Source of the DNA: Escherichia phage vB_Eco_Solly
Direction: 5' to 3' (one strand)
Sequence record: OY720021
DNA length: 64,000 bases
Numbering within the stretch: the first letter of the stretch is position 1; each line of letters opens with the position of its first letter. Of this stretch, positions 3,299 through 59,408 are shown one piece after another. A program made the position numbers and the translations under genes. The notes beneath the pieces were generated by a model, which saw only the letters and a program-made list of their open reading frames with translations, was not told the DNA's origin and did no database searches.

Positions 3299-3577
3299 TC
3301 AAAATGTAATTTCTAACCAATCACCATCACGCTGATCACTATTGACTTTAAAGCTGAATCCTTCTTTTCTCAGCCAATCACCAATTTCTTCAGTAATCAA
3401 TTTATCACGAGCAATACAATAATAATTAAAATGTGTTTTACCTTGTTCAGCTGCTTTATTAGCAAGTTCCGAAAAATCTTTAATAAAACACTCTAGCTTA
3501 AACTGTTTACTTTTGAATGCTTTTTCGCGTAATTGATTAGCAAAAGATTCATTTTCATAAAGATCATACTGTTCCAT
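3299..3577 (-). CDS. Hypothetical protein (T4 24.2-like position)
   Basis: 92 aa ORF tightly packed between rnlB and hoc. Confidence 0.5.
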   Translation of the reverse strand: MEQYDLYENESFANQLREKAFKSKQFKLECFIKDFSELANKAAEQGKTHFNYYCIARDKLITEEIGDWLRKEGFSFKVNSDQRDGDWLEITF

Positions 3578-53601: not shown

Positions 53602-54387
53602 ATGGCAATTGTAGGTGTTCCTGGCTGGATTGGCGAATCTGCCGTGAATGAAACTGGACAACGTTGGATGGATGCTGCGATGAGAGCAGTTCGTGTTTCA
53701 GTTCCCGGTTGGATGAGTTCAATGGCTGGGCAATCTAAAGAAGTATATTATAGCATTGGTGCTAGTAATTCTTATAATAAAGATACATTAATAAACTGGA
53801 TAAAAGCACAAGGGTCCACGCCTGTTGTTATTACTATTACAGGAAATATTGTTTCTCAATCTACTGGTGTTCCATGCTTAGATTTTCCTAGCTCATTAAC
53901 TAATGCATACGTGACACTTAATATCAATTCAGGCGTGCACGTTTGGGGCCGTGGCGGGAATGGCGGAAATAACTCTGCCGGTGGAGCAGGAGGAACTGCA
54001 ATAAATAATGGAATTGGAACTAGATTGCGTATTAACAACAATGGTGTTATCGCAGGAGGCGGTGGAGGCGGTGGAGGCGGATATTATTCTCCTTTTTCAC
54101 AAATGAGATTAACCTTTGGCGGCGGTGGTGGGCGTCCGTTTGGTGCTGCCGGTGGGTCTGCTAATATGGAACAGGGTGCTACTGCTGGTACTATTTCTGC
54201 ACCAGGTAAAGGGTCTGTCAACGGTATCTATAATGGCGGGAATGGTGGTGATGCCGGAGCCGCAGGAGGTAAATGTAATATTCGCGGTCAAGGATCAGAA
54301 TATAACGGCGGTGCGGCCGGTAAAGCTGTTACTGGTAATGCTCCAACTTGGACTAAGGTTGGTACAATATACGGTTCAAGAGTATAA
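53602..54387 (+). CDS. 38: Receptor-recognising adhesin gp38, T2-type with glycine-rich motifs
   Basis: 261 aa; N-terminal attachment region then poly-Gly blocks separated by variable segments. Confidence 0.85.
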   Translation: MAIVGVPGWIGESAVNETGQRWMDAAMRAVRVSVPGWMSSMAGQSKEVYYSIGASNSYNKDTLINWIKAQGSTPVVITITGNIVSQSTGVPCLDFPSSLTNAYVTLNINSGVHVWGRGGNGGNNSAGGAGGTAINNGIGTRLRINNNGVIAGGGGGGGGGYYSPFSQMRLTFGGGGGRPFGAAGGSANMEQGATAGTISAPGKGSVNGIYNGGNGGDAGAAGGKCNIRGQGSEYNGGAAGKAVTGNAPTWTKVGTIYGSRV

Positions 54388-54419: not shown

Positions 54420-55076
54420 ATGGCAGCACCTAGAATATCATTTTCGCCCTCTGATATTCTATTTGGTGTTCTAGATCGCTTGTTCAAAGATAACGCTACC
54501 GGGAAAGTTCTTGCTTCCCGGGTAGCTGTCGTAATTCTTTTATTTATGATGGCGATTGTTTGGTATAGGGGAGATAGTTTCTTTGAGTACTATAAGCAAT
54601 CAAAGTATGAAACATACAGTGAAATTATTGAAAAGGAAAGAAATGCACGCTTTGAATCTGTCGCCCTGGAACAACTCCAGATAGTTCATATATCATCTGA
54701 GGCAGACTTTAGTGCGGTGTATTCTTTCCGCCCTAAAAACTTAAACTATTTTGTTGATATTATAGCATACGAAGGAAGATTACCTTCAACAATAACTGAA
54801 AAATCACTTGGAGGATATCCTGTTGATAAAACTATGGATGAATATATAGTTCATTTAAATGGACGTCATTATTATTCTGACTCAAAATTTGCTTTTTTAC
54901 CAACTAAAAAGCCTACTCCCGAAATAAACTACATGTACAGTTGTCCATATTTTAATTTGGATAATATCTATGCTGGAACGATAACCATGTACTGGTATAG
55001 AAATGATCATATAAGTAATGACCGCCTTGAATCAATATGCGCTCAGGCGGCCAGAATATTAGGAAGGGCTAAATAA
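54420..55076 (+). CDS. t: Holin T
   Basis: 218 aa; single N-terminal TM segment (VAVVILLFMMAIVWY) and large periplasmic domain. Confidence 0.85.
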   Translation: MAAPRISFSPSDILFGVLDRLFKDNATGKVLASRVAVVILLFMMAIVWYRGDSFFEYYKQSKYETYSEIIEKERNARFESVALEQLQIVHISSEADFSAVYSFRPKNLNYFVDIIAYEGRLPSTITEKSLGGYPVDKTMDEYIVHLNGRHYYSDSKFAFLPTKKPTPEINYMYSCPYFNLDNIYAGTITMYWYRNDHISNDRLESICAQAARILGRAK

Positions 55077-55349
55077 TTATTTGTTCGTATACATCTCTAG
55101 ATATCGATATACACCCTCAAAACCCTCGTTGAATTCGTCGATGAGGGTTTTCTTATCTTCTTGAGTTAATTCAGAAACAATTTTACGGAATGAATTCTGA
55201 TTTAATTTTCTACCTTCATGCGTTACTCCAATCTCATTCAGAAATGCAATAAAATTAGCACGATTCTCAACAATATCTTCTCTGGAAAATTTAATCAAAA
55301 TAGACGCAACAGTAATAATTTCACGAACTGTATCAATGTTTTTATTCAT
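55077..55349 (-). CDS. asiA: Anti-sigma-70 factor AsiA
   Basis: 90 aa convergent with t. Confidence 0.85.
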   Translation of the reverse strand: MNKNIDTVREIITVASILIKFSREDIVENRANFIAFLNEIGVTHEGRKLNQNSFRKIVSELTQEDKKTLIDEFNEGFEGVYRYLEMYTNK

Positions 55350-55361
55350 TAACTATACCAC

Positions 55362-55514
55362 TCAATTAGTTGACTTTGTTATAATATCATCAGACGCTTG
55401 ATTTGTAAACTGGTCTGTGTTATTTTCTTCAAAAATTTTTTCTACGAATTCCTTGAACGACTTACGTTCCTGAGCTACATTATGCTCGATTACTTTTTCA
55501 AGATTATGACTCAT
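55362..55514 (-). CDS. Small ORF (about 50 aa) between arn and asiA, below ORF-track threshold
   Basis: Manual translation MSHNLEKVIEHNVAQ...; ATG overlaps arn stop; contains the asiA early promoter. Confidence 0.3.
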   Translation of the reverse strand: MSHNLEKVIEHNVAQERKSFKEFVEKIFEENNTDQFTNQASDDIITKSTN

Positions 55515-55789
55515 TCGAAATAATCTTCAATTTCATAATCATGGACGTAAATCATTATAGTTTTTAATACATCATCAATACTTTTTCCTGGAGCTGGAAT
55601 TACGTAGAAATATCCTGCTTTTGAGAGGTCTTTATAAGTTCCAATCAAGAAATCATTATTCTCAAGATGTAGTTCTTCAACTAATTCATTAACAATTGAA
55701 TGGTATAGGTTTGGTAGAAACTTATATAGCTTTTCTAGAATATCAATTTTGATTGTGTATTGAACCACGGATTGAGAATCAATAATCAT
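55511..55789 (-). CDS. arn: Arn-like acidic protein (candidate anti-restriction DNA mimic)
   Basis: 92 aa acidic protein adjacent to asiA. Confidence 0.6.
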   Translation of the reverse strand: MIIDSQSVVQYTIKIDILEKLYKFLPNLYHSIVNELVEELHLENNDFLIGTYKDLSKAGYFYVIPAPGKSIDDVLKTIMIYVHDYEIEDYFE

Positions 55790-55872
55790 AGACCTTCCCC
55801 TTATGTTTCTGTTTGCGATTAGATTCTTTAAACGCTTTCTTCTTATCCTTATGAACAGAAGCTTTATTAAAA

Positions 55873-56091
55873 TTATGTTTTGCGACTAAATTGTTCATAG
55901 TGCTGAATTACCTCTCTTAAACATTTGCATGTGAATGAAAACTTTTTAGCTACACCACATTCAAATATATGTTCTCTTAAATCACGTGTATCGGTATATC
56001 CCATCTCAACGATAAAATGCCGTATTAGATTTTTATCTTTATCATTGAGAGAATTAAAATAATCGGATTTTGAATTAATTTCCCTGGCCAA
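55873..56091 (-). CDS. Hypothetical protein
   Basis: 72 aa ORF. Confidence 0.45.
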   Translation of the reverse strand: MAREINSKSDYFNSLNDKDKNLIRHFIVEMGYTDTRDLREHIFECGVAKKFSFTCKCLREVIQHYEQFSRKT

Positions 56092-56371
56092 ATTGAATCA
56101 CCTTCAGTTGACGTTTTAATTCTTTTATCATCTCTTCGTTCATCGCAATATAAAGATCGCGTAAAGCAGGTTTTAGCATGTCATTTATTATAGAACTAAA
56201 TGGACATACATAATCTTTTCCTACGAGCTTTTTGGTGAATTCCATATCACAGAACTTAAATCCCGGCTCATTGGTATAAATTCCCCAATTAGTTGACATC
56301 ATTTTATTGGCATGTTCTAGTGCCTGGATTTGATTCATAATTCCATCAATTTGAAACTTTTTAATATTCAT
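56075..56371 (-). CDS. Hypothetical protein
   Basis: 98 aa ORF. Confidence 0.45.
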   Translation of the reverse strand: MNIKKFQIDGIMNQIQALEHANKMMSTNWGIYTNEPGFKFCDMEFTKKLVGKDYVCPFSSIINDMLKPALRDLYIAMNEEMIKELKRQLKVIQFGQGN

Positions 56372-56832
56372 TAGTAAAGGTCCTCAGAGTAAAGTTCTTT
56401 TTCACTACCACCACGTTCAATACGTACTTGTCCAGCGTAAGTTGCAATAATCATTGCTTCTTCACGTGTCCAATAATTACTATATTGGTCAATAAACCCT
56501 TGGTCATCATTACAAACTTGTTGAGTAACTAATTGAGGTTTAACTACATCTAAAACTTCTGCCATATCTTTAGAATAATGACGAGCACCTGGAATAATAA
56601 GAGTTCGTCCATCTTTTAATTTAAAACGGTTGGCTGCACAAACAATTCGTCGTTGATACTTTTGGTTTTCATCCCAATACGCAGTCTGCCAACAGATTTC
56701 AGGAACTTCTTTCAGAATATCTTCTTCTGTGCATTTATAACCATGCGCTTTAAATTTTTCAACAAGACTTTCTGGAGTCTCACGAGATAAAGGAACATTC
56801 AGCATTTTTAAACGATTAATAAATGGGTTCAT
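56371..56832 (-). CDS. Hypothetical protein
   Basis: 153 aa ORF. Confidence 0.5.
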
Positions 56833-57158
56833 TTAAACCATCCTTTAATACGCTGCCACAAAGTTTTCTGCTGAGCTTTGTTAACACCAATTGAGCGAAT
56901 AACCGGTTGAGATTCCTGGAATTCTTTATAATCATCAAGGTAAATTTCGTAAGCTGCATCTGTAAATGAACTTATTGCTGCCATAAAATTATTGCGAATA
57001 CCTACTGGAGCATCTTTACTTTCACGAATAATCATGTATTTACCAGTCTTAATCTTTACGATAGTTCCAAGATAAGCTCCATGGTACCAGATGTCCCAAC
57101 CCTCTTGAGTAGGTTCTGCGCAACGACGAAGTTCATTAACAATTTCTAACTTGTTCAT
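56829..57158 (-). CDS. Hypothetical protein
   Basis: 109 aa ORF. Confidence 0.5.
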
Positions 57159-57168
57159 TATTTATTCC

Positions 57169-57804
57169 TCACAGTTCAGATGCTACAGTGATTACAGCTT
57201 CAATGTTTTCTGCCGAGCGTTTAATGTCAAGATACACATTACCGTTTTTAGCGATTTTACATGACATTCCGATGTCAGTAAATTTCTGAATATGATGTTC
57301 CATCATTTTGTATCCAAAAATTCGCATATTTCCGTTGTTGTTAATTTCAAAATTACGAATTCCGTGAGTGCGTTTTTCTAAAATAGCGAGATAGTTACTG
57401 CGATAAGTTTCAACCTTTTTAAGAACAAATCCATTTTCATCTAAAAGTTTTAACATGAGGTCTTTATCTTCTTCCATATCTGAAGTAATCTCGCGAGCTT
57501 TACGAGTTGCTCGTTTTTTCAGTAGTTCCGGAGCATTTTCCTGTGCATATAAAGTTGCTGCATTTGAAATAATATCCTGAGCTTCACCTGTAATGATTAA
57601 TCCATCACCAGATTTCTCCACTAGGCCTTTTTTAATCAATACCCCAATATTACTATTAACTACTGCGTTACCTAAATCTGGATGTACCTCACGAACTTCT
57701 GCAGCTGTAATGAAATCTTTCTTAGCAATAGTAATTAAAATCGCAGCAGTTTTTTCATTCAGAACATCGTTAGAAGCTTTGATGATGTAAGTTACTTTAG
57801 ACAT
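57169..57804 (-). CDS. motA: Middle-transcription activator MotA
   Basis: 211 aa; preceded by early promoter cassette 57846..57908. Confidence 0.85.
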   Translation of the reverse strand: MSKVTYIIKASNDVLNEKTAAILITIAKKDFITAAEVREVHPDLGNAVVNSNIGVLIKKGLVEKSGDGLIITGEAQDIISNAATLYAQENAPELLKKRATRKAREITSDMEEDKDLMLKLLDENGFVLKKVETYRSNYLAILEKRTHGIRNFEINNNGNMRIFGYKMMEHHIQKFTDIGMSCKIAKNGNVYLDIKRSAENIEAVITVASEL

Positions 57805-57845
57805 TTTCTAATCTCCGTAATTCTGTATCAGTAGTTGATAGTTGT

Positions 57846-57908
57846 ATAGTACCACAGTATGCTTTGGTTGTAAACCGTTTTGTGAAAAAATTTTTGAAAT
57901 AAAAAAAA
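57846..57908 (-). promoter_or_regulatory. Early promoter with A/T-rich UP element upstream of motA
   Basis: About 66 bp identical to 40517..40582. Confidence 0.6.
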
Positions 57909-57933
57909 GGGAGAGCCTCGGCTCTCCCTAAAA

Positions 57934-58083
57934 TTACTGCATGACTGTGATAACTGTCATGATAACACGTTGAATTCCGAACGCAAGAAGACCTCCTGCT
58001 ACGGCAGGAACAACACCTAACCCCGCCAGTAAAATGCCACCGGATACTAATGCGGCGCTTGTAATACCAATGAATGGACTCAT
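57934..58083 (-). CDS. Small hydrophobic membrane protein (49 aa), below ORF-track threshold
   Basis: Manual translation MSPFIGITSAALVSGGILLAGLGVVPAVAGG...; ATG overlaps gene 52 stop. Confidence 0.35.
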   Translation of the reverse strand: MSPFIGITSAALVSGGILLAGLGVVPAVAGGLLAFGIQRVIMTVITVMQ

Positions 58084-59408
58084 TTGATTTCCTCTAAATC
58101 TTTAGTGTATTCGGTAACTACATCAGTAGTTTTCCAATATTCGTTTTCTTCTTTTTTGGCTTTAGCTTCTTCAGCAAGTTTCTTTGCTTCGTCGGAAGTC
58201 ATATGAAAAATGTTCATTCCAACTAGTTTATCAACATAAGAAGAATACATATCAATTTTAGAAAGTTCTTCTGTCAGCTCTTTACGAGTTTTACCTTGTA
58301 CAACAATTTCACCTGAAATTACTTTCTTAATGAAATGTGCCTTGGCAAAAGCTAAACGAAATGCTGATTCAGTTTCTTTGATTTTGTTATCAATTCGTTT
58401 TTGGACATAAGTTTTACGAACTTCAACGAAGTCTTTGATTAAATCAACTACGTTATCGTAAACTTGCAGCTTTCCTTTCTCATTAATGACGGTAATATTC
58501 TGGGAACGACGCTCAATCAAGCCGAAGTCTTTCATAATTTTTGCATGGCGTTCTTCTTCGTTATCACTCAAAGAGTATTCTTTACGGAATTTAACTTTGA
58601 AGCCAAAACCATGCTCACCGCAAGCATCATCCCACGTAATGAAGCCTTTATCTTCAAGCGGGTCTAAGATTTTACTCACATAAGTTTCACGATCATACTT
58701 ATACGGAATCTCAGTGATATTCATTTGAGTTCGTGAAGTAAACTTGTACGTTCCACGAATTTCATATTGACCGTCAATTTCAACGACTTCACCACGAAAT
58801 TCTGGGAATTCTACCTTCGGTTTAGTTACTTTCTTTCCTTGAAGAGCTTGCAGTACAGCTTTCTTGACAGAAGAAACGCTATGAGGAAGAATGTAAGTTG
58901 CATAACCAGTTGCAATACCGGAAACACCATTAAGAAGAACAGTAGGAATAATAGGCAAATAGAAAGCAGGCGGAATGTGTTCTTTATCTTGATGTACCGG
59001 AGCATATTCAGTATCTTTATATACATTATAGAAATTTTTACTTACACGAGCAAAAATATAACGACTTGCCGCTGCTTTTTGAACGGTACGAGAACCAAAG
59101 TTTCCTTGACCATCTAACAAAGGAAAGTTATTATTCCAAGTGTTAGCCATCAAAGCACCTGCGTCTTGTGCAGAGTTTTCACCATGATGATATCCAAGGT
59201 CTGCTACACCACCTGCAATAGAAGCGAGTTTGTGAAACTTATCTTTATTTCCTCGTGCCAAATCAAGAGCTCGAGCAATAACAAATCGTTGAACTGGCTT
59301 AAATCCATCAATCATATTTGGGATAGCACGATTTTCAACCGTGTACATAGCATAAGCCAATGCTTCATTATCAATGATACTTTTTAAATCGCGATTATTC
59401 AGTTGCAT
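58080..59408 (-). CDS. 52: DNA topoisomerase II medium subunit gp52
   Basis: 442 aa, the T4 gp52 length; position between motA and ac. Confidence 0.85.
   Translation of the reverse strand: MQLNNRDLKSIIDNEALAYAMYTVENRAIPNMIDGFKPVQRFVIARALDLARGNKDKFHKLASIAGGVADLGYHHGENSAQDAGALMANTWNNNFPLLDGQGNFGSRTVQKAAASRYIFARVSKNFYNVYKDTEYAPVHQDKEHIPPAFYLPIIPTVLLNGVSGIATGYATYILPHSVSSVKKAVLQALQGKKVTKPKVEFPEFRGEVVEIDGQYEIRGTYKFTSRTQMNITEIPYKYDRETYVSKILDPLEDKGFITWDDACGEHGFGFKVKFRKEYSLSDNEEERHAKIMKDFGLIERRSQNITVINEKGKLQVYDNVVDLIKDFVEVRKTYVQKRIDNKIKETESAFRLAFAKAHFIKKVISGEIVVQGKTRKELTEELSKIDMYSSYVDKLVGMNIFHMTSDEAKKLAEEAKAKKEENEYWKTTDVVTEYTKDLEEIK

Follow-up and report, generated by a model that had tools for sequence, protein, structure and literature searches.

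The 64-kb stretch of phage DNA analysed here (the window) very probably belongs to a Tequatrovirus (T4/T2-like) genome, and positions 55350-57168 of it correspond, with the same high confidence, to the classical motA-asiA interval with its arn gene cluster. Comparison with related phages indicates that all seven ORFs of this interval are genuine coding genes, and that two of them, arn.1 and arn.4, begin further upstream than the T4 reference would have it. As a discovery the cluster matters little, since the regulation of the operon was already described in 2026; it has been annotated ever since the T4 genome was sequenced, and Arn has been characterised in structure and function. The value of the present analysis lies in the corrected models of arn.1 and arn.4, in a 39-aa gene that is unannotated in T4, and in the overlap of the site for the host sRNA ArcZ with the arn.1 initiation region, and further in the S70 allele of Arn and in an Arn.3 family that is without a structural assignment. 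The genes of the interval and its flanks are as follows.

55077-55349, minus strand: asiA, anti-sigma-70 factor (flank), 90 aa, 100% identical to T4 AsiA
55362-55514, minus strand: asiA.1, 50 aa, 96% identical to T4 AsiA.1
55511-55789, minus strand: arn, 92 aa, 97.8% identical to T4 Arn
55779-55898, minus strand: 39-aa DUF7230 ORF, called on Pfam, PHROGs and conservation
55873-56091, minus strand: arn.1, 72 aa with a TTG start, C-terminal 43 aa 97.7% identical to T4 Arn.1
56075-56371, minus strand: arn.2, 98 aa, 94.9% identical to T4 Arn.2
56371-56832, minus strand: arn.3, 153 aa, 98% identical to T4 Arn.3
56829-57158, minus strand: arn.4, 109 aa, C-terminal 68 aa 98.5% identical to T4 Arn.4
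57169-57804, minus strand: motA, middle-transcription activator (flank), 211 aa, 98.1% identical to T4 MotA

We assign the window to Tequatrovirus because its proteins are 95-100% identical to those of T4 and because its DNA is collinear with that of T4, with one 3-nt indel. In a megablast comparison with 50,697 phage records, 55350-57168 matched 641 records, 482 of them with a query cover of at least 80%; the closest was Escherichia phage teqsoen (99.0%), and T4 strains were about 97% identical. The corresponding T4 interval (NC_000866, 161163-162833) has the same genes, order, strand, overlaps and asiA and motA flanks, the differences being that the T4 record has no entry for the 39-aa gene and gives lengths of 43 aa for arn.1 and 68 aa for arn.4. 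The seven ORFs (50, 92, 39, 72, 98, 153 and 109 aa) follow one another on the minus strand and tile 55362-57158 without a gap, and a first-pass annotation of this DNA had thus rightly described, in size and packing, an island of small ORFs between asiA and motA, as the ORF listing confirms. Its further statement that the overlaps are of the ATGA type holds at two junctions, arn/asiA.1 and arn.4/arn.3, and not elsewhere, arn.3/arn.2 being joined by TAATG and the other three junctions by overlaps of 11, 17 and 26 nt. These small pre-late genes are transcribed leftwards, and in the direction of transcription the order is motA, arn.4, arn.3, arn.2, arn.1, the 39-aa DUF7230 gene, arn, asiA.1 and asiA, such that the succession arn.4-arn.3-arn.2-arn.1-arn on a single strand between motA and asiA, by which a T-even arn operon is recognised, is present. 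The proteins of the island are conserved across hundreds of phage records, and third positions account for 8/10 of the substitutions that separate arn from its counterpart in phage WFK, for 63/103 in arn.3 and for 49/75 in arn.4.

Several observations converge on an Arn.1 of 72 aa, initiated at TTG, rather than of 43 aa. First, the frame, of which the T4 annotation includes just the C-terminal 43 aa (ATG at 56004), is open from a TTG at 56091 that has AAGGTG 7 nt upstream of it. Second, all four differences between the window and T4 in the 5' extension are synonymous, third-position changes. Third, in a tblastn search the 72-aa protein was covered to at least 80% in 802 of the 807 matching phage records, at identities that descend to 47% in Klebsiella phages. 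Fourth, an alignment of sequences from seven genera contains 11 invariant positions among the N-terminal 29 residues; the extension is the best-conserved part of the protein, and four of the seven sequences have Leu in place of the Met30 at which the T4 annotation begins. Finally, other genera have ATG or GTG where Tequatrovirus has TTG, and their proteins are annotated at 67-72 aa.

This correction bears on the single published account of arn.1-arn.4 that our literature search found, a preprint on T2 (Collins et al., June 2026, bioRxiv 10.64898/2026.06.19.733364), in which the arn operon is defined as arn.4-arn.3-arn.2-arn.1-arn. According to that work, ArcZ pairs at arn.2 +285 to +294 and thereby shields the transcript from RNase E, which acts at GcAUU, 11 nt before the ATG of arn.1; the replication defect of a delta-arcZ host is suppressed when mcrC is lost; and the 70-nt stretch between arn.2 and arn.1 is treated as intergenic and non-coding. 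The ArcZ/RNase E model thus comes from one source that has not been peer-reviewed. The window has the same five genes, from arn.4 to arn, as the T2 operon, and both of the T2 elements are unchanged in it.

56078-56087, minus strand: CCAGGGAAAT, putative ArcZ seed pairing site (arn.2 +285 to +294), in arn.2 codons 95-98 and arn.1 codons 2-5
56016-56020, minus strand: GCATT, proposed in T2 as a recognition motif of RNase E, 11 nt before the ATG at 56004

Using the ArcZ sequence located beside arcB in an E. coli genome (Rfam RF00081, 117.6 bits), we obtained for the seed and CCAGGGAAAT a predicted duplex of -26.3 kcal/mol, which is the single best among 25,584 overlapping 40-nt segments taken from both strands of the 64 kb. 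The site is also present at the arn.2/arn.1 junction of T4 and WFK, and is absent from the same junction in Mosigvirus, Kanagawavirus, Winklervirus, a Klebsiella phage and Marfavirus, where the values range from -8.5 to -17.5 kcal/mol. Whereas the preprint describes the sites as conserved in diverse phages, we thus find the ArcZ site only in Tequatrovirus-type sequences and not in five other genera, and the overlap of two reading frames at this place may largely account for its conservation within Tequatrovirus.

A 72-aa Arn.1 has perceivable consequences for how these elements are to be read. The published 70-nt intergenic region would then be coding sequence for residues 1-29; the ArcZ site would overlap arn.1 codons 2-5, and an extended duplex would cover the Shine-Dalgarno sequence too; the RNase E motif would fall in codons 24-26; and the published GcAUU-to-GcAGG mutation would alter His25 and the invariant Phe26, so that the corrected gene models change the reading of the published ArcZ and RNase E constructs. 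Following the T2 model, ArcZ, together with Hfq, would pair with the 3'-terminal part of arn.2 and keep RNase E from cutting about 57 nt further downstream. The same duplex would cover codons 2-5 of arn.1 and possibly extend across its Shine-Dalgarno sequence, and because it would thus lie over the arn.1 initiation region, we infer that, if the TTG start indeed sits inside it, ArcZ would throttle translation initiation on arn.1 while stabilising the downstream message that encodes Arn. It would also follow from a TTG start that the "intergenic" RNase E site lies within a translated frame, with its exposure depending on the translation of arn.1. That either such a dual action of ArcZ on the operon, or an Arn.3 that is an unrecognised enzyme or signal-binding module, should prove real is a tentative and rather unlikely proposition.

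The second gene model to need correction in the T4 reference is that of arn.4, which has an ATG start in the window and ATA at the same place in T4, giving 109 aa as against the 68 aa annotated. Conservation argues that 109 aa is the true length: 52 of 55 clusters of Arn.4 homologues are 107-119 aa long, the most conserved residues are found in the N-terminal 41 aa that are missing from the T4 annotation, and in the part of the gene encoding them 21 of the 29 substitutions relative to WFK are in third positions.

The 92-aa acidic protein had been noted before at the position of the T4 McrBC inhibitor, and its placement is borne out by a gene order as in T4, its acidity by a pI of 4.55. It had been labelled Arn-like, which names the family correctly and undersells the protein: to judge by a match to Pfam PF22134 (DM_Arn; 181.2 bits with a cut-off of 26, E=4.4e-54), by another to the crystal structure of T4 Arn (PDB 3WX4, E=1.1e-55) and by 97.8% identity to T4 Arn over 92/92 residues, it is Arn itself. 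With 16 D+E and 7 K+R it has the strongly negative charge that a DNA mimic should have. T4 Arn counteracts the restriction of non-glucosylated T4 by McrBC; in the model put forward for it, it mimics DNA and binds McrB, and it binds H-NS too (2025 review, PMC12707154). For T2 Arn, inhibition of McrBC is implied by the preprint (bioRxiv 10.64898/2026.06.19.733364). Going by this literature, the Arn of the window would sit where McrBC, a type IV restriction enzyme, binds DNA, and would in this way protect DNA in which hydroxymethylcytosine is incompletely glucosylated. Ocr of T7 and ArdA of Tn916 are likewise small, highly acidic, early proteins that take up the site at which a restriction enzyme binds DNA, and they also bind H-NS; they are not homologous to Arn, however, and their targets are type I enzymes (and BREX) rather than the type IV McrBC (PMC12707154).

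The allele deserves attention. Besides McrBC, T4 Arn counters the PUA-Cal-HAD defence, an activity that depends on the allele: the N70S change abolishes inhibition, and T2 Arn does not bind PUA-Cal (PMC12871103). The only differences between the window protein and T4 Arn are F13I and N70S, so that the Asn70 needed against PUA-Cal-HAD is absent, the window reading PGKSIDD with Ser70, besides Ile13. Because of Ser70 we predict that this Arn behaves like that of T2, i.e. that it is a T2-type allele which blocks McrBC and not PUA-Cal-HAD.

What the six other proteins do is less readily stated, and their distribution is instructive in this respect. In every Straboviridae genus sampled, arn.4, arn.3 and arn.1 stay beside motA, and the asiA-proximal genes, arn included, are swapped between genera; Arn itself is confined to Tequatrovirus-type genomes (at least 90% identity; tblastn, phage records), and unrelated ORFs take its place in Mosigvirus, Winklervirus and Klebsiella phages. 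Phages F1 and Bp7 carry extra inserted ORFs in the motA-asiA interval.

Two readings of the island can be weighed against this distribution, and to neither would we give more than a tentative place. The first, which we consider possible but doubtful, is that the whole island is an anti-defence cassette in which each of the six other proteins neutralises a particular host immune system, a suggestion that goes back to the first-pass annotation and was also raised, as speculation, for the T2 cluster (bioRxiv 10.64898/2026.06.19.733364). It is in keeping with the anti-restriction activity of Arn and its allele-specific block of PUA-Cal-HAD, with a promoter-distal end that varies between genera as accessory counter-defence loci usually do, with the insertions in F1 and Bp7, and with the resemblance, at E of about 3e-3, of Arn.3-like folds to BFVD proteins described as "large polyvalent protein associated domain". 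On the other hand, none of the six has homology to known anti-defence proteins in Pfam, PHROGs, NCBIfam or the PDB; where GenBank records say "anti-restriction nuclease", the name has been carried over from arn and is not evidence; and the fixed place of arn.4, arn.3 and arn.1 by motA, together with the occurrence of Arn.3 in 1,587 records, is more in line with a general function in take-over or metabolism than with strain-specific counter-defence. The second reading, also possible rather than probable, holds that arn.4, arn.3 and arn.1 are general take-over or gene-expression factors tied to MotA and AsiA (for example RNA polymerase modifiers, nucleoid proteins or factors of RNA metabolism) and that only the distal genes serve anti-defence. 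For the distal, asiA-proximal end, the distribution speaks in favour of an accessory function in counter-defence. For the motA-proximal genes, a general take-over role appears at least as likely as anti-defence, the fixed position of the three genes and the very wide spread of Arn.3 being our grounds for caution.

Arn.3 is conspicuous in its own right, and extends far beyond the T4-like phages: its 1,587 records come from many phage families and hosts, and the family comprises more than 3,000 clusters at 50% identity. The protein, which has one additional Gly relative to T4, consists of a short N-terminal helical part followed by a conserved core domain of about 95 aa. Since invariant His, Arg, Gln and Glu residues are found in a predicted fold that is compact and confident, Arn.3 is most likely an enzyme or a ligand-binding domain. 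Structure prediction, which the first-pass annotation had proposed as a check on the small proteins, was informative to the extent of this fold and of an Arn.4 model with a pLDDT of 81, and yielded no informative relative: the structure comparison of Arn.4 matched nothing informative, no solved structural relative of Arn.3 was found, and neither single sequences nor profiles of Arn.1, Arn.3 and Arn.4 had a significant match in the PDB. With Foldseek, three BFVD proteins that bear the name "large polyvalent protein associated domain" matched Arn.3 weakly (E=3e-3 to 2e-2, identity 19-25%); Arn.3 has no Pfam match to an LPD domain, genes of the Arn cluster go unmentioned in the paper on polyvalent proteins (Iyer et al. 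2017), and no fused Pfam domains were found in ten longer members of the Arn.3 family (214-434 aa). Arn.3 may be a not yet recognised enzyme or signal-binding module that serves host take-over or counter-defence, and a phage domain so widespread and without a structural relative merits biochemical study.

Scans of the seven proteins against Pfam, PHROGs and NCBIfam gave a function only for Arn, the rest being DUFs, PHROGs of unknown function or sub-threshold noise. The earlier statement that the other ORFs have no recognisable motifs needs qualification, and stands insofar as none of the Pfam families concerned carries a function: homologues of Arn.2, Arn.3 and Arn.4 are listed under PF26819, PF26092 and PF26821 in a precomputed Pfam column with no function attached, and the 39-aa ORF matches DUF7230 (PF23876; 44.9 bits with a cut-off of 27, E=1.2e-11). 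This last protein, which is lysine-rich (pI 10.2) and belongs to phrog_1359 (E=5e-23), has a translation that is 100% identical in T4 DNA and 79-82% identical in Mosigvirus and Dhakavirus, and is absent from the NC_000866 feature table; its ATG has a GAGG at the long spacing of 12 nt. Arn.2 belongs to phrog_1844 and has only 23 cluster representatives, mostly more than 90% identical, which is too little depth for predicting its structure usefully. AsiA.1 is acidic (pI 4.9; phrog_3762, E=1e-37); between the window and WFK, 5 nt differences in asiA.1 lead to 4 aa changes, such that purifying selection is weak, and five genera share its N-terminal motif MSHNLE.V in the gene that precedes asiA. 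Arn.1, Arn.2, Arn.4, the 39-aa protein and AsiA.1 are probably small binding proteins in host take-over.

The proposition that the 39-aa ORF, asiA.1 and the 5' extension of arn.1 are open frames due to chance or to regulatory overlap, and not genes, could appeal to the omission of the first and the last from the T4 reference, to the wide spacing of the GAGG, and to the presence of the asiA promoter within asiA.1 together with its mostly non-synonymous changes, but it is very improbable and we reject it on conservation, seeing that the 39-aa ORF scores above its Pfam threshold and retains its identity in two other genera, that the arn.1 extension is so well kept and has ATG or GTG starts elsewhere, and that MSHNLE.V is maintained across five genera.

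With all seven ORFs taken as genes, it can be asked from where they are transcribed. A consensus scan of the region yielded the following candidates.

55381-55409, minus strand: sigma-70/T4-early-type promoter-like site, TTTACA-17-TATTAT with a TG extension, inside asiA.1
57846-57874, minus strand: promoter-like site, TTTACA-17-TACTAT, upstream of motA
57929-57908, minus strand: terminator-like hairpin preceding the motA promoter-like site

The site inside asiA.1 had the top score of the scan (10/12) and its DNA is identical in T4; because promoter-like matches are not enriched as a class in the region (12 found, 15.1 expected), both promoter calls rest on their position and on identity with T4. 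An early promoter within the 50-aa ORF had been proposed before, with the island downstream of it. The promoter-like site is indeed there, but the island is not downstream: every gene is on the minus strand, and the site therefore lies at the island's 3' end, facing into asiA. The T2 arn cluster has been called a middle transcription unit (bioRxiv 10.64898/2026.06.19.733364); no acceptable MotA-box middle promoter was found on the minus strand of the island, where the sole match, TGCTTTA, is poorly spaced and is mutated in T4. An Rfam scan of 54500-58500 gave no credible RNA family, a weak match to CrcZ falling on the terminator hairpin. On the minus strand from 57804 to 55077 the scan detected no terminator-like site, and since none intervenes, the island would be transcribed by read-through from the sigma-70-type promoter that precedes motA, and the second promoter, within asiA.1, would serve asiA only.

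The arn operon model put forward for T2 (bioRxiv 10.64898/2026.06.19.733364), in which the host sRNA ArcZ pairs at the 3' end of arn.2 and shields the transcript from RNase E, treats 70 nt as intergenic, whereas on our reading of the window they code for the N-terminus of Arn.1:

56004-56091, minus strand: 5' part of arn.1 (residues 1-29), TTG start

On comparative evidence, Arn.1 is a 72-aa protein initiated at TTG, whose residues 1-29 are encoded in this "intergenic region". The RNase E-site mutation of the T2 study (GcAUU to GcAGG) would thus also alter His25 and the invariant Phe26 of the 72-aa protein. At the equivalent arn.2/arn.1 junction, the ArcZ pairing site was not found in two Mosigvirus sequences, a Kanagawavirus, a Winklervirus, a Klebsiella phage or a Marfavirus, in all of which arn.1 starts with ATG or GTG. 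Duplexes with ArcZ at this junction reach -8.5 to -17.5 kcal/mol in these genera versus -23 to -26 in Tequatrovirus-type sequence, and among the genera compared only the latter combines the TTG start with the ArcZ site.

Arn.1 is flanked by a small gene that overlaps it on one side and arn on the other, encoding a lysine-rich DUF7230 protein of pI 10.2:

55779-55898, minus strand (T4, L001 2084-2200): 39-aa DUF7230 gene
55511-55789, minus strand: arn, differing from T4 at codons 13 and 70

T4 DNA encodes an identical 39-aa protein, but the T4 reference annotation lacks the gene. Arn itself carries Ile13 and Ser70 in place of the Phe13 and Asn70 of T4. Since inhibition of PUA-Cal-HAD by T4-Arn is reported to be lost with N70S (2026 preprint, PMC12871103), vB_Eco_Solly is predicted from its Ser70 to be sensitive to this defence, like T2.

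A start codon also differs at the other end of the island:

57036-57158, minus strand (T4, L001 around 3335-3457): 5' part of arn.4

The window has ATG where T4 has ATA. The product is annotated at 68 aa in T4 but is 107-119 aa long as encoded in nearly all other phages, and its most conserved residues fall outside those 68 aa. Translation of arn.4 in T4 may begin at a non-canonical codon; otherwise, the start codon is mutated in the laboratory strain.

Identity to phage WFK (L003 901-2719) is mosaic: each gene from asiA.1 to arn.1 is nearly identical, with 0-5 differences, whereas in arn.3 and arn.4 identity falls to about 78%, which implies a putative recombination boundary near arn.2. The arn.4/arn.3 junction tolerates gene insertion, as judged from additional small ORFs:

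L006 2386-2541 (phage F1): 51-aa ORF
L007 2360-2707 (phage Bp7): 115-aa ORF

The gene directly upstream of asiA, 50 to 112 aa long, shares the N-terminal motif MSHNLE.V in five genera, beyond which the sequences are unrelated:

55362-55514, minus strand: window
L005 1057-1218: Mosigvirus
L007 1346-1504: Bp7
L010 2109-2447: Winklervirus
L011 2692-2958: Klebsiella phage

Outside the island, three further features were noted:

57934-58083, minus strand: motA.1, 49-aa hydrophobic ORF
57908-57929, minus strand: strong terminator-like hairpin with a T-run, its 9-bp stem containing 6 GC pairs
53602-54387, plus strand: 261-aa protein gene downstream of the long tail fibre gene

A weak Rfam match to CrcZ at 57908-57929 is accounted for by the hairpin alone, which on the minus strand follows motA.1 and precedes the motA promoter-like site. 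Phage teqsoen, the best match to the island, has a 261-aa gene at the position of the third feature, for which its annotation reads "distal long tail fiber assembly catalyst"; T4 gp38, a tail fibre assembly protein, is by contrast shorter (183 aa) and not its positional counterpart. Given this teqsoen-type gene and the T4 record note that gp38 of the T2 subfamily is unrelated and is the adhesin, the receptor-recognition module is probably T2-like. The 261-aa protein contains glycine-rich stretches.
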